A program made the translations under genes and the position numbers. Below the pieces are notes generated by a model. That model saw only the letters and a list, made by a program, of their open reading frames with translations, did no database searches and was not told where the DNA came from. From NCBI GenBank assembly GCA_049472415.1, contig JBLIRS010000001.1:1-31566 (forward strand): a stretch of DNA of 31,566 bases, read 5' to 3'. This document shows positions 1 to 31,566 of this stretch, one piece after another. Source of the stretch: a bacterium (GTDB taxonomy: Bacteria; SZUA-182; DTGQ01; JAFGSM01). Within the stretch, counting starts at the first letter, position 1; each line of letters begins with the position of its first letter.

Positions 1-1104
1 CGGCCAATCCTCAACGTCCCTGGTGTTATAAAAATGGACTACCTCTTTTAGAGACTTGAAAACACCATTGTGAAGATAAGCCTTTGGAAAATAAAGGCCC
101 GGGCGTTTATCGACATTTCTCAGGGTCGGGACCTTGTGTTTTCCCATATTCTCGTCAGCAAGGGCCTGCCACTCAGGCAGCATATCTAAAGTCTTTAAGA
201 AACCTCCTAATCCCTCGTCTATCCAGTCCGCTCCATCGGGATTGATGGGTGTCCCGTCATCGAGGTATACCTTATCCATCTTATAAAATGGATTATCGGG
301 ATTTTTAGGGGTGCCAAGATTGTCAAAGGTAAAGTCTGTGAAAAGGGGAGGCTCGCCATCCGATCCTGGTTCACTGGGATGGCATGCTGAACACATGCCT
401 TTCCCTTCAAAAAGCTCCAGTCCCCATGCTTCCTGCTCAGTCAACTCTGCATCTCCGCCAAGGTAAAGGTCATACTTGGATGAAAACTGATTGACTTCGC
501 TCGAAGCCTCATATGCAGCAATAGACAATCCAATGCGATCGTAATTTTCATCAATTTTATCAGGAGTTTCCACGCTAACCGGCTCTCCCCAGGCTGCTTC
601 CCATAAATATGCGTATCGTGAAGCAGCCACCTGTTTCAATACTGCCTCCTTGCTGGGATTGTTCTGTTCCACGGGGTTCAAAAACGGGCCGAGGGCCTGA
701 TCAGCCGCGGGATTTCCTAACACCTCTCCTGTAGCCCTGCCATCCCAGAAGTTTCCACCTACAAAAAGGCCTTCTGCTTCATCATAATGAAAGATTGGGC
801 TAAGAGTCGCGTAGGCTGCGCTCGGTGGTTTACGATTGCCGAAGCGCTGGGGAACGGCTCCTCTATAAACACTGCCTGACATATTTATTCCGGCGATGGG
901 TCCCGTAAAGCCGGTGCTGGGTGCATGACAGTCGGCACAGGACATAGAGTCAGGACTCGAAATCTTGTCAAAGAACAGGGCTTTGCCTAATTCTGCCATG
1001 GGTGTAAGATTTCCTCCGTTAGCCATGGTAATATTTAAAGAACACATCAATGAGGTTATGATCAAAAAAGTCGACAGATAATTAAAGGCTCTTTTCCAAT
1101 TCAT
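1..1104 (-). CDS. Secreted di-heme cytochrome c peroxidase / MauG-family protein (3'-truncated by window edge, 368 codons visible)
   Basis: Translated by hand; absent from the ORF track because the stop lies outside the window. ATG at 1104 with AGGAGG SD (1111-1116 on minus strand), signal-peptide-like N-terminus MNWKRAFNYLSTFLIITSLMCSLNITMA, two CxxCH motifs (CADCH 925-939, CSACH 379-393), GNFWDGRA, KVPTLRNV, AYLHNGVFKSLKEVVHFYN. Confidence 0.92.
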   Translation of the reverse strand, partial: MNWKRAFNYLSTFLIITSLMCSLNITMANGGNLTPMAELGKALFFDKISSPDSMSCADCHAPSTGFTGPIAGINMSGSVYRGAVPQRFGNRKPPSAAYATLSPIFHYDEAEGLFVGGNFWDGRATGEVLGNPAADQALGPFLNPVEQNNPSKEAVLKQVAASRYAYLWEAAWGEPVSVETPDKIDENYDRIGLSIAAYEASSEVNQFSSKYDLYLGGDAELTEQEAWGLELFEGKGMCSACHPSEPGSDGEPPLFTDFTFDNLGTPKNPDNPFYKMDKVYLDDGTPINPDGADWIDEGLGGFLKTLDMLPEWQALADENMGKHKVPTLRNVDKRPGLYFPKAYLHNGVFKSLKEVVHFYNTRDVEDWP

Positions 1105-24048: not shown

Positions 24049-26061
24049 TTATTCATAATTATTATCAACGCCTCCGATCAGGTGTGGCAGCCCTTCTTCT
24101 AAAACCATTTTTTCGATGAAACGCTCACCGATCTCAGTCAGAAAACGGCTCGGTTTCATCATTACTAATCCACCTGAACGGCTTCGATAAACCTTGGGGA
24201 CAACCAGATACAGCTCATCCCTGGCCCTGGTAACAGCGACATGAAAAACACGTCTTTCCTCCTCTTCATCCTCCTGAGTATTTATGGCAAGATCTGTGGG
24301 AAAACGTCCATCAGCGAGCCAGGGAATAAATACTACCGGCCATTCCAGACCTTTTGCCTGATGAACGGTGCTTAGAATTACAAATTCCTGTTCATCCGGT
24401 CCCGTGAGTACGGTTTCACCCGAGAAATCAGAAGCCAGGGCCAGATCGGCCAAAAGTGCCTCCAGGGTAACATATTGAGAAGAAAAATTTACAAACCCCT
24501 TTATGTCTTCTATTCTTTGATATGATCGGTCATAATGGGAGACCAGATAATCTTCGTAGAAACCGGACATCAAATGCTCTATCATCTCGGCAGGAGAGGT
24601 CAGATCTGAAAGTCTGTTGAGAAGCGTTGTAAAATCAGAATAGAAAGGCCGTACGCGGGATGGGAATATATTAGCCGTCGCGGGATTCAATGCCGCTTTT
24701 AATGGATTGTCCCCTTGATTTATATGATTCCATAATTTTTTCGAAAGTCCTCCTCCGATCATGGGCAAGAGCTTCAACGCCCTCAGCCAGGCTATCTCAT
24801 CTTGCGGGTTGTGAATTATCCTCAAATGACAAATTATATCTTTAATATGGGCCTGTTCAAAGAACCTTAGTCCGCCTCTTACCCGGAATGGTATATTACG
24901 GCGTTGCAACTCTAATTGTATTTCTAAAGAATGCCAGTGACTTCTATATAGGATGGCAATAGAGTTAAGATTCCTTCCTTCGTCCAGGAGATGGAGAATA
25001 TATTCGGATAAAAAACGGGATTGTGTAAAATGGTCATAACAGGAGACTATCGCAGGCTTAAGACCTTGAGGACGGATAGCATGAAGATTTTTGGGCAATC
25101 TTTCTGTGTTCATGGAAATACTTGCATTGGCTAATGCAAGTATTTCCGGTGTTGAACGGTAATTCGTTTCAAGACGGTATTCACCGGCATCAGGATATCG
25201 CTCCTTAAATGAAATGATATTTTTAAAGCTTGCGCCGCGAAAACTATATATGGATTGTGCATCATCCCCAACAACGGTTAGGTTGCGATGCTTTGATGCA
25301 AGAAGGTCGACAATAGCCCCTTGTATGGCATTTGTGTCCTGATATTCATCTACCAGGATATATAAAAATTGATCGGATAATAGGTCGCGAATCTCTTTAT
25401 GTTCCATAAGAAGCCTGAGCCAAGAGGAAAGCAGATCGTCATAATCCAGAAATTGCCTTGAATGCTTTTTGGCGGCATAGAGGGTTAGCACGCTTTGAAT
25501 CCCATCCATATCCTGAATAAACATTGGATAGCTCTTATATAATATCGTTTCAAGCGGCAAAAGGGTATTATGCACAAAACCGGATATTTTTGACAAAACG
25601 GCCTTTTGAGGAAAACGCCTTTCCTTGATCAATATACCCGCTTCTGTAATACAGGCCCCAATCAGATCCCGTGCATCTTCCCTGTCAAGGATAGAAAAAT
25701 CAGGAGAAATATCAAGTGCTGTTCCATAAAGTCTTAGTATCCGGTTGGCGATATGATGAAATGTTCCGCCCCATAGGTTTTTCGTTTTATGGCCGGCCAA
25801 AATCTCCACCCTGTGGAGCATCTCACGTGCCGCTCTGTTTGTAAAGGTTACGAGCAATATGCGGCCTGGATCCACACCTTGTTGTACAAGCCATGCCAGG
25901 CGATACGTCAAGGCACGGGTCTTCCCGCTGCCTGCTCCGGCTATGACGAGCATTGGTCCGCCAGGTGCGGTAACGACCTTGAACTGCTCATCATTCAGGT
26001 CGGCCTCGAAATCAACATCGCTATTTAAATGCCCGGCCTTAAAGACAAATCTTCTCGTCAT
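24049..26061 (-). CDS. SF1 DNA helicase UvrD/PcrA/Rep family
   Basis: 670 aa; AGAGSGKT, VTFTNRAAREM, GTFH, LVDEYQDTN, VGDDAQSIYSFRGA, LETNYRST, STVHQAKGLEW, EERRVFHVAVTRA. Confidence 0.95.
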   Translation of the reverse strand: MTRRFVFKAGHLNSDVDFEADLNDEQFKVVTAPGGPMLVIAGAGSGKTRALTYRLAWLVQQGVDPGRILLVTFTNRAAREMLHRVEILAGHKTKNLWGGTFHHIANRILRLYGTALDISPDFSILDREDARDLIGACITEAGILIKERRFPQKAVLSKISGFVHNTLLPLETILYKSYPMFIQDMDGIQSVLTLYAAKKHSRQFLDYDDLLSSWLRLLMEHKEIRDLLSDQFLYILVDEYQDTNAIQGAIVDLLASKHRNLTVVGDDAQSIYSFRGASFKNIISFKERYPDAGEYRLETNYRSTPEILALANASISMNTERLPKNLHAIRPQGLKPAIVSCYDHFTQSRFLSEYILHLLDEGRNLNSIAILYRSHWHSLEIQLELQRRNIPFRVRGGLRFFEQAHIKDIICHLRIIHNPQDEIAWLRALKLLPMIGGGLSKKLWNHINQGDNPLKAALNPATANIFPSRVRPFYSDFTTLLNRLSDLTSPAEMIEHLMSGFYEDYLVSHYDRSYQRIEDIKGFVNFSSQYVTLEALLADLALASDFSGETVLTGPDEQEFVILSTVHQAKGLEWPVVFIPWLADGRFPTDLAINTQEDEEEERRVFHVAVTRARDELYLVVPKVYRSRSGGLVMMKPSRFLTEIGERFIEKMVLEEGLPHLIGGVDNNYE

Positions 26062-26197
26062 TCTCTTTTACTGCTGCAATTGATACGTTACTAAACTTAA
26101 CTATTTATAATTATTAGTTGTTATTATTTTGATTATAAAATTTAACAAAGGAAAATGCAAAGCATATTATTTTTATCAAATTACGATCTTATCAAAA

Positions 26198-26227
26198 TTG
26201 ACAAAACAAATTGTAAATAGGTATAAT
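26198..26227 (+). promoter_or_regulatory. Consensus sigma70 promoter upstream of the 26384 gene
   Basis: TTGACA (26198-26203), N18, TATAAT (26222-26227). Confidence 0.65.
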
Positions 26228-26383
26228 TTTAGTATAAAAAAAAGAATTTAATGAACTAAATTAATTGATTTTGTATAAATAATAAAAGGGAAGGAGGAAG
26301 GAGCTTTTTTCTTATTGATTATTTTTTTTATTATCCTGTGTATCTTTATCCAAAAAATTTTACTAATAATCTGGAGTAAAAAA

Positions 26384-26932
26384 ATGAAAATTAAAAAAAG
26401 CAGAATATATTTATTTGTTTTATTTATTTGTATTTTTTGTTTTGCATATTTATATGTTAATTCTTCCTCAATTGCTCAATATTCGCCATATAATTATTAT
26501 AATTATAATAATAATAATTACTATTACGAATATTCAACCCAGGCTCTGTCACCGTCATATTTTTACGGCACCCCCTATTCAAATAGTTATTCATGGGTAA
26601 ATGATCAATATTACGGAAGAGAGATAAATATACCAACACTAAAGATAAATGATTGGTCAATTCAACCTAATTTTGGAAATACTGTCTATTCAGTCAGTTC
26701 AAATGGAAGCTCATTAACAATATATGGTACTTATTTTAGTGCTCACACCCATGCCGGAGTAAACTTTAATCGTACATTGTTTATGGACAGCTCATTATCT
26801 TCATCGGCAAATCACGCAATGTATAATAACATCGGCGGACAATCATCACTTACCTCTCCTGTGAGTTATTATGCACGACAGGTTTTACAGTTTAGCCCGG
26901 TTTTGCATGGTCCTCTGCTAAACAATTATTAA
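26384..26932 (+). CDS. Secreted Tyr/Asn/Ser-rich low-complexity protein (182 aa)
   Basis: ATG 26384 with GGAG SD (track start 26315 is likely too long); MKIKKSR plus hydrophobic core ending SIA|Q; YNYYNYNNNNYYY tract. Confidence 0.7.
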   Translation: MKIKKSRIYLFVLFICIFCFAYLYVNSSSIAQYSPYNYYNYNNNNYYYEYSTQALSPSYFYGTPYSNSYSWVNDQYYGREINIPTLKINDWSIQPNFGNTVYSVSSNGSSLTIYGTYFSAHTHAGVNFNRTLFMDSSLSSSANHAMYNNIGGQSSLTSPVSYYARQVLQFSPVLHGPLLNNY

Positions 26933-26977
26933 AGATAAGAGTAAGAAAATAAGGATCAAAATAAGAGGGGTTATGAG

Positions 26978-27060
26978 TGGGGTCAGGCCTTTTATTATAC
27001 TGTTCTTAAATATTTTTACGTATTATAAAAAAAGATATTATGATAAAAGGCCTGACCCCA
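26978..27060. repeat. 18-bp perfect inverted repeat around a 47-nt AT-rich spacer (REP/MITE-like or terminator)
   Basis: TGGGGTCAGGCCTTTTAT (26978-26995) and ATAAAAGGCCTGACCCCA (27043-27060). Confidence 0.85.
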
Positions 27061-27453
27061 TTTGTGATATTTGTGTATTTGCTTTTCAGACACTAAAATG
27101 TTATTATTAATATAAGAAAAGTGTAATGTAAATAAGTCTTCATCCGTCTATCTTTTACAAAAAATTTTAGAATGAATAAAAAAACTAGTTTAACAATTTA
27201 ATTTAATTTTTAAAATATTTAATGTGTAATGTAAATGCATTTTGAATCGTCTATTATATATAAATTAAATAAATTAAAAATCGCCTATATATTTATAAAC
27301 AAATTATAAATAAACAAAATATAAATAAAAAAAATATTTTTAAAAATTGATCAATTTCCAGAGATTTGTATATTGTTTTTTTTGTAGTTTTTATTAATTA
27401 ATTTATTAACATCCTAAAGGGGGTGCATTTGCTAGAATTGTAACCTTGAAGTT

Positions 27454-27498
27454 GGTCTGTATTTTAATTTGACAGACCGGAAAAATTTATTTTAGATT
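27454..27498 (+). promoter_or_regulatory. Putative promoter with operator-like palindrome upstream of cassette copy 1
   Basis: TTGACA (27469-27474), N18, TAGATT (27493-27498); GGTCTGT-N11-ACAGACC (27454-27478) overlaps the -35. Confidence 0.4.
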
Positions 27499-27606
27499 GG
27501 AGGTGATCAGAAACAGGGCATTATGCTCTGGAACCGTTAAAGTTTTAGGTTTTTAACTTTTTGTTTTTGTAAGATTTTCAGAAGATTATAATGAAGGAGA
27601 ATTGTT

Positions 27607-27999
27607 ATGGATATTTCTAGACTTCTAAAGGTGGGGATTATCGCTGCTGTCCTGGCAATCGGTGTTGTATTAATATTCGGACCGATGGCTCAGGCTCAGA
27701 TCTTTCCCACATCATATTATTATACAAATCCGTTGTATTATTCCGGATATGGTTATTTTAATTCGATCAATGGGTACCTGCTCGGTTATGCCCCCTTTAC
27801 GCCGTTTTTAACCCCCAGTGCGGCTACAGCATACAATACCCTGGGTATTCCTACGTGGCCGTATTTCGGGTCTCCGTATCAGACTACGTTTCCTTATACC
27901 ACCTTGCCGGGCACTCCGATTCCTTATGCAAGGTTTGATTATCCGACCTACTCATACGGTTCACCTGATTTCTATTTGAGCTGGGTACTTTTACAATAA
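27607..27999 (+). CDS. Small secreted Tyr/Pro/Thr-rich protein, copy 1
   Basis: 130 aa; SD GAAGGAG; signal peptide ending MAQA|Q; near-identical paralog at 30928 with mostly synonymous differences, which supports real coding. Confidence 0.9.
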   Translation: MDISRLLKVGIIAAVLAIGVVLIFGPMAQAQIFPTSYYYTNPLYYSGYGYFNSINGYLLGYAPFTPFLTPSAATAYNTLGIPTWPYFGSPYQTTFPYTTLPGTPIPYARFDYPTYSYGSPDFYLSWVLLQ

Positions 28000-28035
28000 A
28001 GATTTTAAATAATTTTAAAAGCGAGGTGTTTAGAT

Positions 28036-30357
28036 ATGAAAAATACAATTAAAACCTTAATGGTTTGTTTGACTGTGACCTTGGCCTTTGTGATGGTCAG
28101 TTCATTGGCCATGGCACAGGTGGGTTATGGTTTCACACCACTTTGGCAGTTGCCATCCTTTCAGAGTCAACCGCTTTCGGTTCCGACCTGGCAGGACCCC
28201 TATAATGGTGAAGGGGATCTCCTTGTCGACAACTTTGAGTATTGGGACAGCCCATACAATCATGGGTGGATGCAGCAAGAGCCTTCCTATCCGGTTTATG
28301 GATATGGAATAGGCTATGCCACAATATTCAATACGGTCCTGGATCTTCAGGAAGGAAGCAGGGTGCTTGATGTGTATCGTCCGCCATCTGTATTCTTGCT
28401 CAGCACACCCTATGAGAGGCATCAAGTGTTCCACAGCCTTTATAGCCCTGCAAGCGCTGCTAATCCGGATGCTGAGGCATGTATAAGCATGGAGACAAAC
28501 CCGACAATCAGTTTTGATTTCAGGGCGCCTCTCGGCATCGAGTCCTGGGACATATTTAATCTGTCTGTCATCGGAGAAGATGAGAGTGGCGACAAGTCCA
28601 TTACCGTCAGTATCGTTCCTGTTCAGCCTAATGCCGGTACATACCTTGGAGCCGTTAACAGTACCAGTGGTATGTATGGTTTAGCCGCTGGCGTTACAGG
28701 TTACAATTCAGCCGGACAATTACAGGTCACAATAGCCATTGGCCGCGGAATGCTCGATGGTTCATGGCATGCTGTGTACGTTAATGTTGATGAAGCTGTA
28801 AAGGCCGCTCTGGATGGTTTTGACACCATCGATGATGCTGACAAACCGGACTGGTATATGGCCAAGGCCTGCGCTGTGGCAGTCAGCGGTCAGATGTTCC
28901 GTCTGGACAACCTTATGTTCAGGGCAACCCCACACGATTATCTTGGCGTTCCGAATCTTTTTGAAATGGGTCCGCTGTACGCTCAGATATTCGAACCATA
29001 CAGGTATCTTTTTGTTGCCGATTACTCAGGCGTTGATATGACAATCGTTGTTGACGAAAACGAGCAGGACATTACACGAATTAGCGATTTAATGCTCAAT
29101 CCTGCCAACTTCCTGCTTGTTCAGGACCCGAATGATCCTAATGATCCGGTAGTGAAATACTGGACAGATTTAGGGGCAGATCCCAACAAATTCGGTGAAG
29201 AGGCGGATCCTAACCTTGAAGACCTGTTTGGCAGGGATTTCGTTGTTGATCTCAGCCTGCCCATCTTCGCAGATCCGAATTTGAGGGTAGGTGGTTCCTT
29301 GGCGGAAACGATAATCAATTCCGGTACATTGGGCTGGAATTCCACGATAGGTGGATACGGCGCCAACGGGGTACAGGCCTTCCTGCTTCAACCCCTTCCG
29401 GTTTATCCTTATGATGGTATGCCGACTTATTTACCTGCATACTATAATGCTGTAAACGCTGTTGTAGCACTTGGCAAACCGTATTTTCAGCCGGGACTTG
29501 TTTACCTGCTCGAAGGTGCCCTGTGGAATGCAGGTCTAACCGTTTGGCCGAATATAGCTACATTTGATTATACACCACAGGTTTTTGAAGACCTTATCGT
29601 TACAATCGAGGTAACCAACGGAGCACATTCCGATGTAAGAACATTCCCAATCAGCGTGGTTAACTACCCGATGGAAAACTATCCGCCAGTACTGCAGTTG
29701 AATATAGAAGATCAGATCTTCTATACGGGACAGACGAACGCATATCTCGTCAACTTTATCGATCCTGACTGCTTCATCTTCTCGATGTCATCTGCTCCCG
29801 CGACCACACATGTGCCGGGATACCCGCTTTCTGCGAGCTTCAGGACCGATATGGACGACCTTACCTGGAAAATGACGATCAACGGCATGACTGCATATCA
29901 GTACGGTCCGTGGATCGAGACGATTATCGATCCTTGCACAGGCTTGATCAGTTGGGTGCCGAAGTTCGAAGGTGCCTATGACGCTGTTATTACCGGTAGC
30001 GATGCCCGCGGCGGCACTGCATTTGGTGAAATCACCATCTTTGCCGTAACCCAGGGCACATGGTTGAATCATCCTCCGATCATCTTGAGCAGGCCGACTC
30101 AACCGGTAGTTATAAAGGCCGGAGAAGAGTACGTACTTCAGCATCCGGATCTGGCAGTAGAAGATCCTGACGGTGATCAGATATATGCATCATGTAACAT
30201 AGGCTCCTGTGGACGTTCAGCGGATGGTGCTTTCATTTGGAGATTCCAGAGCAACTTCCCAGGCTCCTACATGGTGGAAATCGTATTTTATGATATCAGA
30301 GGCGGATATTCGATCATGGAATTCTTCCTCGACGTGAAACCGTGGTGGAGTTATTAA
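28036..30357 (+). CDS. Large secreted acidic protein with DPN repeats and C-terminal cadherin/Ig-like domains, copy 1
   Basis: 773 aa; SD GCGAGGTG; signal peptide ending LAMA|Q; DPNDPNDP...ADPN...ADPN...ADPN; NYPPVL...DPD, GLISWVP...SDARGG, NHPPII...EDPDGD are cadherin-like/putative-Ig linker and Ca-binding patterns. Confidence 0.85.
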   Translation: MKNTIKTLMVCLTVTLAFVMVSSLAMAQVGYGFTPLWQLPSFQSQPLSVPTWQDPYNGEGDLLVDNFEYWDSPYNHGWMQQEPSYPVYGYGIGYATIFNTVLDLQEGSRVLDVYRPPSVFLLSTPYERHQVFHSLYSPASAANPDAEACISMETNPTISFDFRAPLGIESWDIFNLSVIGEDESGDKSITVSIVPVQPNAGTYLGAVNSTSGMYGLAAGVTGYNSAGQLQVTIAIGRGMLDGSWHAVYVNVDEAVKAALDGFDTIDDADKPDWYMAKACAVAVSGQMFRLDNLMFRATPHDYLGVPNLFEMGPLYAQIFEPYRYLFVADYSGVDMTIVVDENEQDITRISDLMLNPANFLLVQDPNDPNDPVVKYWTDLGADPNKFGEEADPNLEDLFGRDFVVDLSLPIFADPNLRVGGSLAETIINSGTLGWNSTIGGYGANGVQAFLLQPLPVYPYDGMPTYLPAYYNAVNAVVALGKPYFQPGLVYLLEGALWNAGLTVWPNIATFDYTPQVFEDLIVTIEVTNGAHSDVRTFPISVVNYPMENYPPVLQLNIEDQIFYTGQTNAYLVNFIDPDCFIFSMSSAPATTHVPGYPLSASFRTDMDDLTWKMTINGMTAYQYGPWIETIIDPCTGLISWVPKFEGAYDAVITGSDARGGTAFGEITIFAVTQGTWLNHPPIILSRPTQPVVIKAGEEYVLQHPDLAVEDPDGDQIYASCNIGSCGRSADGAFIWRFQSNFPGSYMVEIVFYDIRGGYSIMEFFLDVKPWWSY

Positions 30358-30380
30358 TTATTATTCACCATTGATAACCC

Positions 30381-30418
30381 AAAAAAGGGCAGCGGTAAAT
30401 CCGCTGCCCTTTTTTTTT
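30381..30418 (+). terminator. Intrinsic (probably bidirectional) terminator after cassette copy 1
   Basis: AAAAAAGGGCAGCGG-TAAAT-CCGCTGCCCTTTTTTTTT. Confidence 0.92.
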
Positions 30419-30543
30419 ACAAAGTTTCCTAACAAATGCCAATGACTTCTCAAATGATTTTTTTTACGATCTTATAAATATTGGCACCTGGCAGTAATTT
30501 CGAAAAACATAAGATTATAAAAAATGATTTTTAATTTTTATGC

Positions 30544-30572
30544 TTGACAATATACAATATTTTGTTTAAAAT
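30544..30572 (+). promoter_or_regulatory. Putative sigma70 promoter for cassette copy 2
   Basis: TTGACA (30544-30549), N17, TAAAAT (30567-30572), downstream of the terminator. Confidence 0.55.
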
Positions 30573-30927
30573 ATTTAATTGTAAAGCATTAATTATATTT
30601 TCTAGTTTTTTTATTCTAAAATATCGTCAAAAAAAAGATAGAATCATTAAATATATAATTGTTATATTATAAATATCTAAGATTTTTTCTACATCAAAAA
30701 AAATAAAATTTAAATTTTACTTAAGCTTCAAGCAAGTTGGTATATATAAATATACAATATCTTTCAATTTCAGGAGGTGATAAATCACAAATAAGATATA
30801 AAAAACAATTTGTTGGTTCATAGGATACATAAGTATCTAAAAATCTAAAGTTTGGAGGTGATCTTTTAGAAATTAAAGAATCAAATGGTAAATCTTATTG
30901 GTAATCTATGAGATATGGAGAAAAATT

Positions 30928-31320
30928 ATGGGAAATTTAAGGTTTTTGAAAGTGTGGGTGATCGCTTGTGTTTTTGCAATCGGTCTTGTTTTAGTATTCG
31001 GACCGATGGCACAGGCCCAGATTTTCCCCACATCATATTATTATACGAATCCGCTGTACTATTCCGGATATGGTTATTTTAACTCGATCAATGGGTACCT
31101 GCTCGGTTATGCGCCTTTTACCCCGTTCCTGACCCCCAGTGTTGCAGCAACATACAATACCCTGGGTATTCCCACATGGCCGTATTTCGGGTCCCCATAT
31201 CAGACTACATTCCCCTATACGACCTTGCCGGGCACTCCGATTCCATATGCACGGTTTGACTATCCTACCTACGCATATGGTTCACCTGATTTCTATCTGA
31301 GCTGGGTACTTTTACAATAA
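30928..31320 (+). CDS. Small secreted Tyr/Pro/Thr-rich protein, copy 2
   Basis: ATG 30928 with GGAG SD gives 130 aa, the same length as copy 1 (track start 30898 is likely too long). Mature part differs from copy 1 at 4 of 100 aa. Confidence 0.9.
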   Translation: MGNLRFLKVWVIACVFAIGLVLVFGPMAQAQIFPTSYYYTNPLYYSGYGYFNSINGYLLGYAPFTPFLTPSVAATYNTLGIPTWPYFGSPYQTTFPYTTLPGTPIPYARFDYPTYAYGSPDFYLSWVLLQ

Positions 31321-31358
31321 CGATTAATGAATATTTTAAAAAAGCGAGGTGTATAGAT

Positions 31359-31566
31359 ATGAATAATACAATGAAAACCTTGATGGTTTGTTTGATTGTG
31401 ACCCTGACATTTGTGATGGTCAGATCAGCGGCCATTGCACAGGTGGGTTACGGTTTCCCACCGCTTTGGGATTTACCTTCCTTTCAAAGTCAACCGCTTC
31501 AGGTGCCGACATGGGAAGACCCCTATAACGGAGAAGGGGACCTTCTTATCGACAACTTTGAGTATT
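31359..31566 (+). CDS. Large secreted protein, copy 2 (paralog of 28036; truncated by window edge)
   Basis: Hand translation MNNTMKTLMVCLIVTLTFVMVRSAAIAQVGYGFPPLWDLPSFQSQPLQVPTWEDPYNGEGDLLIDNFEY; same GCGAGGTG SD as copy 1; absent from the ORF track. Confidence 0.9.
   Translation, partial: MNNTMKTLMVCLIVTLTFVMVRSAAIAQVGYGFPPLWDLPSFQSQPLQVPTWEDPYNGEGDLLIDNFEY

Follow-up and report, generated by a model that had tools for sequence, protein, structure and literature searches.

The window analysed here is a stretch of 31,566 nt that makes up the entire contig C1 of a metagenome-assembled genome (MAG; 2.8 Mb, 279 contigs, 64% complete). Near its end it carries a tandemly repeated cassette of two genes for secreted proteins. 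On the forward strand, an open reading frame (ORF) for a small protein of 130 residues is followed, after a gap of 36 nt, by an ORF for a large protein of 773 residues (Table 1). Both products begin with signal peptides of the n/h/c type, cleaved between AQA and Q in the small protein and between AMA and Q in the large one. A single intrinsic terminator closes the unit; it consists of a GC-rich stem of 9 bp, extended to about 15 pairs by the flanking A/U tracts, and a run of U9. The cassette then recurs as a direct repeat with a spacing of 3321–3323 nt and 83–86% nucleotide identity, which is confined to the coding sequence. An initial annotation, made from the letters of the window, had described such a secreted two-gene unit, and its ORFs, signal peptides, cleavage sites, hairpin, and repeat were all found. 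The contig end cuts the second large gene, and the five differences reported among its 42 visible mature residues were counted correctly. No contig of the MAG overlaps the end of C1, and the orthologous contig of a sister species (G004) breaks within the same large gene.

Table 1 Features of the cassette region (positions in the window) and parts of the large protein (residues of copy 1)
Feature	Position	Strand	Details
Promoter-like site of the third secreted protein	26198–26227		TTGACA-18-TATAAT, 12/12; hexamer scan
Third secreted protein, Tyr/Asn/Ser-rich	26384–26932	+	182 aa from ATG; cleavage between SIA and Q; ORF, sequence
Hairpin after the third secreted protein	26978–27060		inverted repeat, 22-nt arms, 39-nt loop
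Sigma-70-like promoter candidate, cassette 1	27469–27498	+	TTGACA-18-TAGATT, 10/12; kept in the G004 ortholog; weak evidence
Leader motif GGAGGTGAT, cassette 1	27499–27507	+	anti-16S Shine–Dalgarno-like; 108 nt ahead of the start codon
Small gene copy 1	27607–27999	+	30-aa signal peptide and 100-aa mature part
Large gene copy 1	28036–30357	+	773 aa
Intrinsic terminator closing cassette 1	30381–30418	+	folding free energy −26 kcal/mol; z = −7.0 against shuffled sequences
Sigma-70-like promoter candidate, cassette 2	30544–30572	+	TTGACA-17-TAAAAT, 11/12; also in the G004 ortholog
Two GGAGGTGAT leader motifs, cassette 2	30773–30781 and 30854–30862	+	
Small gene copy 2	30928–31320	+	130 aa from ATG, preceded by GGAGAA
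Large gene copy 2, first 69 codons until contig end	31359–31566	+	83% identity to copy 1
Large protein: signal peptide	residues 1–27		
Large protein: aromatic/Pro tail	residues 28–58		low model confidence
Large protein: CBM/lectin-like beta-sandwich head	residues about 57–300		model
Large protein: mixed alpha/beta middle domain	residues about 301–505		model
Large protein: Ig/cadherin-like domains	residues about 506–770		model; pLDDT 80–90 over 503–770

CBM, carbohydrate-binding module; Ig, immunoglobulin; pLDDT, predicted local distance difference test.

The coding parts have a G+C content of 48% and the spacers one of about 30%. The proposal of a promoter before each copy stood in part. Sigma-70-like hexamers are present at both places, but the window holds 26 such sites against 20.4 ± 4.7 after shuffling, which is no enrichment. 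Since these sites are no commoner than in shuffled AT-rich sequence, the promoter assignment is weak for either copy. A search of Rfam across positions 26000–31566 returned no family above threshold.

The leaders of the cassettes also contain the motif GGAGGTGAT, a full anti-16S Shine–Dalgarno-like sequence with no start codon behind it. Three copies occur in the window, where 0.24 are expected, and all three lie in cassette leaders. The whole MAG has 45 exact copies, four of them in small-gene leaders, and across the order the exact motif is present in 14 of 17 such leaders. STAB-SD leaders are found on very highly expressed genes and stabilise the mRNA. By analogy, GGAGGTGAT may act as an mRNA-stabilising or ribosome-standby element.

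The cassette is transcribed in situ. It was present in 12 metatranscriptome runs from eight studies, at 9–56% of the sampled 31-mers, and these runs come from marine sediment, soil, rhizosphere, mangrove, and other sediment. The highest share (56%) was obtained from a run of only 246 Mb. The adjoining UvrD/AAA region was detected in DNA runs only, some of them from the same studies, and in no RNA run; DNA carry-over is therefore not the source of the RNA signal. Transcription, which the initial annotation had expected to be high, is thus supported by RNA runs that contain the cassette and not its UvrD/AAA neighbors.

The mature small protein has 100 residues, including 18 Tyr, 14 Pro, 13 Thr, 8 Phe, and 2 Trp (28% aromatic), with only three charged residues and no Cys. 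Alignment of one half against the other scored no better than shuffles, giving no indication of internal repeats. Pfam and NCBIfam hold no matching family, an atlas search returned unnamed clusters only, and none of its 124 homologues, which are 42–86% identical, has a name. The two copies in the window share 89% amino acid identity with four differences in the mature part (nonsynonymous divergence, dN, 0.018; synonymous divergence, dS, 0.55). Among the four copies of this genome, dN/dS of the mature part is 0.03–0.05, with dS ranging from 0.55 to saturation, a sign of very strong purifying selection, and the signal peptides evolve far faster. Identity remains at least 50% across the order, and the order-wide alignment contains many invariant Pro, Tyr, Trp, and Asn residues and a conserved C-terminal W-x-x-L-Q/N. 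The AlphaFold2 monomer, built from 65 sequences, has hardly any secondary structure and was too poor for a fold search. Such strong constraint on a chain with no monomer fold would fit a protein that takes up an ordered structure only when assembled or bound to a partner.

The AlphaFold2 model of the large protein (30 family members; pLDDT 79.6, predicted template modeling score 0.67) shows three folded parts behind a signal peptide and a short tail. The Ig part at the C-terminus has fold matches to cadherins and protocadherins and to the cadherin-like modules of the staphylococcal serine-rich adhesin SraP (Z 10.6 and 9.7); for the whole protein, SraP is the best fold match in both PDB and Swiss-Prot. 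The window protein itself has no Pfam hit at E ≤ 1 and no NCBIfam family, a PDB sequence profile search gave weak Ig-type hits only, and an atlas search gave generic Ig leads only. Pfam Big_9 is matched by 10 of the 30 family members (best E 3.9e-6), and in phmmer searches residues 630–770 align to repeats of giant He_PIG/Big_9/Cadherin_5 proteins, in which He_PIG scores E 2e-127. Residues E518, D533, N543, N548, D576, D578, D605, and D656 are nearly invariant and place acidic residues at the domain junctions, where calcium-binding motifs would be expected in cadherin-like proteins. The description of the large protein as cadherin-like thus holds, by fold and by sequence links, for its C-terminal part. 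In the middle domain, the search for a fold match and an atlas search of residues 300–505 were both empty. An enzymatic function of this domain was considered and rejected, because its near-invariant residues are just Pro, Leu, and Gly. The empty Pfam and NCBIfam results agree with the earlier statement that neither protein has a recognizable enzymatic motif, and they place neither in a characterized family. All 12 paralogs with an intact end terminate in PWW[ST][YFI] (PWWSY in copy 1), a candidate sorting or docking tag.

The head (residues 57–300) matches CBM families 4, 11, 16, 29, and 30 the jelly rolls of glycoside hydrolase families GH11, GH12, and GH16, and similar domains, with Z-scores of 9–14.7 overall. 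Matches to the CBM families themselves have Z of about 9–10 and root-mean-square deviations of 3–4 Å. Its top matches (Z 13–15) are a C5-epimerase domain and microtubule inner proteins, i.e. not CBMs, and for this reason the modeled head is taken to share only the general jelly-roll fold and not CBM identity.

With the ligand-binding region of SraP (PDB 4m00), the large protein shares a lectin-type beta-sandwich head with cadherin-like modules behind it. This likeness is confined to structure: identities of 9–16% amount to no sequence similarity, and whole-protein TM-scores are 0.14–0.20. Unlike SraP, the window protein lacks serine-rich repeats, an LPXTG anchor, and signs of the Gram-positive accessory Sec export, as judged from the sequence and from Pfam and NCBIfam; it has an additional alpha/beta domain of about 200 residues for which there is no match; and its head resembles CBMs and jelly rolls generally rather than the SraP L-lectin specifically. 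The host also differs, being diderm, as implied by an Omp85 gene in the MAG. The tandem Ig-like beta-sandwich fold is shared with the giant He_PIG/Big_9 adhesins, but these have many Ig modules, whereas the window protein has two or three, which are themselves below Pfam thresholds.

We favor, with a probability of roughly 45%, the reading that the products of the cassette form an abundant module of the envelope or cell surface, with variable lectin-like adhesins acting together with a conserved structural partner rich in aromatic residues. Two envelope proteins would be made from one operon and exported by Sec. The large product would be of the adhesin type, with a CBM/lectin-like head and the middle domain carried on a stalk of cadherin-like (Big_9/He_PIG-type) Ig domains that ends in the PWW[ST][YFI] tag. 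The small product would be an abundant structural partner, providing matrix, fiber, or anchoring material for the lectin-like proteins. By duplicating as a whole and diverging mostly in the head region, the cassette would vary binding specificity and not dosage. An Ig stalk and a layout that joins lectin and cadherin parts are of kinds already known; undescribed, and found in one lineage only, are the N-terminal 500 residues of the large protein, the small protein, and the recurring pair.

The large genes have dN/dS values of 0.06–0.19, with dN peaking in residues 28–310; along the protein, the Ig part is the best conserved region, and the tail and head are the least conserved. This pattern also bears on an explanation by glycan capture for nutrition, in which the large proteins would be surface or periplasmic polysaccharide binders, similar to SusE/F, and their expansion would broaden the substrate range. 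A CBM-like jelly roll with many CBM and glucanase matches, mounted on an Ig stalk and forming the most variable region, is what such binders could look like, and the sediment and rhizosphere habitat suits them. We consider this explanation improbable: none of the inspected cassettes and paralogs has a glycoside hydrolase, a TonB-dependent transporter, or a sugar transporter as its neighbor, the head belongs by sequence to no CBM family, and the strongly conserved small protein would be left without a role.

The copies of the cassette genes in this genome are old and divergent. Between copies dS ranges from 0.5 to above 1, and large proteins are 74–80% identical. The initial annotation had suggested that multiple copies are kept for dosage or for surface variation; their age and divergence favor variation and disfavor amplification for dosage. 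A recent duplication or assembly artefact was ruled out by the dS of at least 0.5 between copies, and an origin from a mobile element or phage was rejected, as no such genes were found and the family is present throughout the order. The signal peptide of large copy 2 is nearly identical to that of a paralog on contig C19.

The tandem cassette is real, but it proved to be a small part of a dispersed family with at least 12 large-protein loci in this MAG, eight of which lie at contig ends. Contigs C1, C22, C58, C178, C195, C262, C263, and C278 end inside a large-family gene. Paralogs of this family are a main cause of assembly breaks in the lineage and explain the fragmentation of its assemblies. 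In related genomes, 11–28 stretches per genome match the large family; these numbers count matched stretches and not genes.

All 13 species of the window's order have both families, and the seven species in the other orders of the phylum, which comprises 20 species in GTDB, have neither. The small protein was searched at both scales and the large protein in the sample of relatives, which covers all 20 phylum genomes. Among 1.84 billion representative proteins, the large protein has 245 matches; the distant ones share the C-terminal Ig unit only, and the N-terminal 500 residues are confined to the order. Co-occurrence in related genomes, which the initial annotation had anticipated, was thus observed, and of the outcomes it had named as contrary (a match to a known family, no expression, no co-occurrence) none was encountered. 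The lineage inhabits anoxic marine, mangrove, and rhizosphere sediments. Its placement is loose, as PrmA is 50–54% identical to Desulfonema and Desulfobacterales proteins and a 16S rRNA gene was not found in the MAG.

The number and spread of these loci are relevant to the idea, raised in the initial annotation, of an S-layer or sheath. Here both proteins would be lattice or sheath subunits that coat the cell, with the paralogs as surface variation. High expression in situ, export signals, multi-domain beta-rich proteins with Ig-like modules, many divergent paralogs, and the presence in the genome of several more secreted protein families, uncharged and rich in aromatic residues and Pro, that could form a proteinaceous layer, are all consistent with such a coat. 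Set against this, Pfam and NCBIfam searches revealed no S-layer family, SLH, or other anchoring domain; the closest structural analogues are the binding regions of adhesins and CBMs and not lattice proteins; and each genome has matches scattered over at least a dozen unrelated loci, an unusual pattern for a lattice subunit. We regard a lattice or sheath as doubtful, and the large protein in particular looks like a lectin-headed adhesin and not like the lattice subunit first proposed.

The association of the two genes recurs widely. A small gene lies directly upstream of a large gene in at least 21 cases, always co-oriented and with gaps of about 25–110 nt. The five species of the window's genus carry such pairs, and so does G006, a genome from a second family, where three cassettes in tandem and a fourth in inverted orientation lie within 20 kb. 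When 11 complete cassettes were compared pair by pair, the identity between small proteins correlated with that between large proteins (Pearson 0.97, Spearman 0.82), and the cassette therefore duplicates and diverges as a unit. Such correlated divergence is expected from a shared history and is no proof of contact. A prediction of the complex between the mature large and mature small proteins gave a score of 0.00 with a partner pLDDT of 22, which is evidence neither way.

Several observations weigh against a surface module of adhesin and structural partner. In this genome, the small gene stands upstream of only 4 of the at least 12 large paralogs. In six genomes of a sister family (f3), it is a single-copy gene with no large-family gene adjoining, and because these genomes keep it apart from the large family, the two proteins are not obligate partners. 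No test supports binding between small and large proteins. The small protein could be modeled only poorly as a monomer (pLDDT 54.6), and the argument for its structural role draws on nothing beyond its composition, conservation, and expression. By sequence, the head matches none of the CBM families in Pfam or NCBIfam, and its likeness to CBMs comes from the model. Expression was judged from contigs assembled from RNA runs and not from read depth. Finally, the host is diderm, and the analysis found neither a route across its outer membrane nor a known anchor; the proteins may therefore be periplasmic. Despite these points, surface exposure of the large protein, its adhesion or ligand binding, and a physical interaction with the small protein would together give the most probable account of the cassette.

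The six f3 genomes also provide a different context for the small gene. There it lies downstream of a gene for a secreted protein of 1230–1270 residues with CarboxypepD_reg, SdrD_B, and SpaA repeats, a large beta-sandwich protein of surface type, which we count in favor of an adhesin-partner module. A relationship of this neighbor (1255 aa) to the large family was tested with hhalign and rejected (probability 0.8%). The small gene further adjoins genes for a sigma-54 activator, which lacks an N-terminal receiver domain, and then ClpB. Each of the six genomes (L034–L039) has a near-consensus sigma-54 promoter (TGGCAT-N5-TTGCA, 10/11) at 265–300 nt ahead of the small gene; a search upstream of the cassettes in the window's genus gave none, the best sites matching at 6 of 11 positions. 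In several bacteria, pilA lies beside a sigma-54 activator, as the f3 small gene does.

This context raises the alternative that the two proteins have separate functions. The small protein would be a general envelope component controlled by sigma-54, with a role of its own in, for instance, stress or development, and the large genes would merely share its strong expression signals in some lineages. The sigma-54 promoter, activator, and ClpB at an f3 locus with no large-family gene (6/6) point in this direction. So do a divergent small paralog on contig C227, which is followed by a different secreted protein of 200 residues, and more distant homologues of the small protein, which likewise have no large gene. 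In G005, which represents the other genus of the family to which the window belongs, the small paralogs are all divergent, and none of them adjoins a large-family gene. Separate functions are nevertheless unlikely in our view, since the pair has been kept through at least 21 duplications in two families, in constant order and with short gaps, and the small and large proteins diverge in step. The structural pair of the initial annotation accordingly holds insofar as the pairing recurs; it does not extend to most large paralogs, which have no small gene, or to the f3 small gene, which sits beside a different large protein.

Like curli CsgA, Fap, chaplins, and pilins, the small protein is small, secreted, and highly expressed, and its model shows no stable monomer fold. 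However, it has no sequence relation to curli, Fap, chaplins, or TasA (Pfam), no internal or Gln/Asn-rich amyloid repeats, and no prepilin signal. Its composition of Tyr, Pro, and Thr, with 14% Pro, is unlike that of known bacterial amyloids. No dedicated secretion or nucleator genes of the amyloid systems lie nearby; only the large gene adjoins, and the neighbors of other copies are unrelated housekeeping genes.

A second expanded family in this genome, with at least eight copies, comprises secreted proteins of 110–210 residues that are nearly uncharged and rich in aromatic residues, Pro, and Leu. Their mature parts start with Q-[YL]-W-x-A-[LM]-P-P-Y-N-x-L-W-P-L-W-S. Members are found at C46:14766–15963, C81:2246–2821, C188:1382–2014, C211:14639–14968, C250:2928–3446, C265:3437–4000, and C227:4499–5101 (all in G000, the genome of the window), and the C227 member sits after the divergent small paralog. 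At the end of contig C22 (G000:C22:9018–9398, minus strand), an open frame that consists almost entirely of Gly/Tyr/Ser repeats (GYGGYGYPSYGGYGY...) runs off the contig. It is conceivable, although we think it unlikely, that the order builds an undescribed proteinaceous envelope material from several uncharged, aromatic/Pro-rich secreted families (the small protein, the 'PPYNxLWPLW' proteins, and the Gly/Tyr-rich one). The small protein would then be a new self-assembling subunit, of neither the amyloid-repeat nor the pilin kind, on which the lectin/cadherin-like proteins dock. The sole support for this idea is the occurrence in the genome of these further families.

Every cassette protein exposes Gln at position +1 of its mature part. 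In Bacteroidetes, Gln occupies this position in most signal-peptidase-I substrates, and a glutaminyl cyclase is present (PMC5837995, PMC10653852). A crude heuristic scan of the MAG identified Gln as the commonest +1 residue genome-wide, in 41 of 240 cases (17%) against a background of 3%. This share is far below the majority seen in Bacteroidetes, and the lineage is a different one, with nearest named relatives that are Desulfobacterales-like. Glu_cyclase_2 was not found in the MAG, which is 64% complete, and the search did not extend to M28-type cyclases. The sequences are suggestive of a partial Q-rule outside Bacteroidetes.

One paralog of the large family contains an in-frame TGA (L006:3505–3507, equal to G000:C271:7321–7323, minus strand), and the same codon is present in four species of the genus. 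Orthologs with TGA occur in L044, L045, and L046, and the fifth species (L047) has Cys (FGF-TGA-PYTGFGR versus YGW-C-PYTGFGR). A conserved predicted hairpin with a folding free energy of −19 to −27 lies about 18 nt downstream of the TGA, and the MAG encodes tRNA-Sec and SelA. This paralog is a candidate secreted selenoprotein within an adhesin-like family.

Upstream of the first cassette, a third secreted protein (Table 1) is 77% conserved at the same position in the sister species G004. No further copy was found in this genome. It may be part of the locus.

The cassette genes are apparently among the most strongly transcribed genes of an uncultured phylum of 20 species, and yet they are unannotated. 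The small protein is a rare example of a low-complexity-looking sequence that is kept almost invariant (dN/dS about 0.03), which implies a precise structural role. If the cassette products are as abundant as their transcription suggests, they would be suitable markers for metaproteomics, antibodies, and cryo-electron tomography. The large family would offer a handle on how these bacteria of sediments and the rhizosphere attach to particles, polymers, or partner cells.

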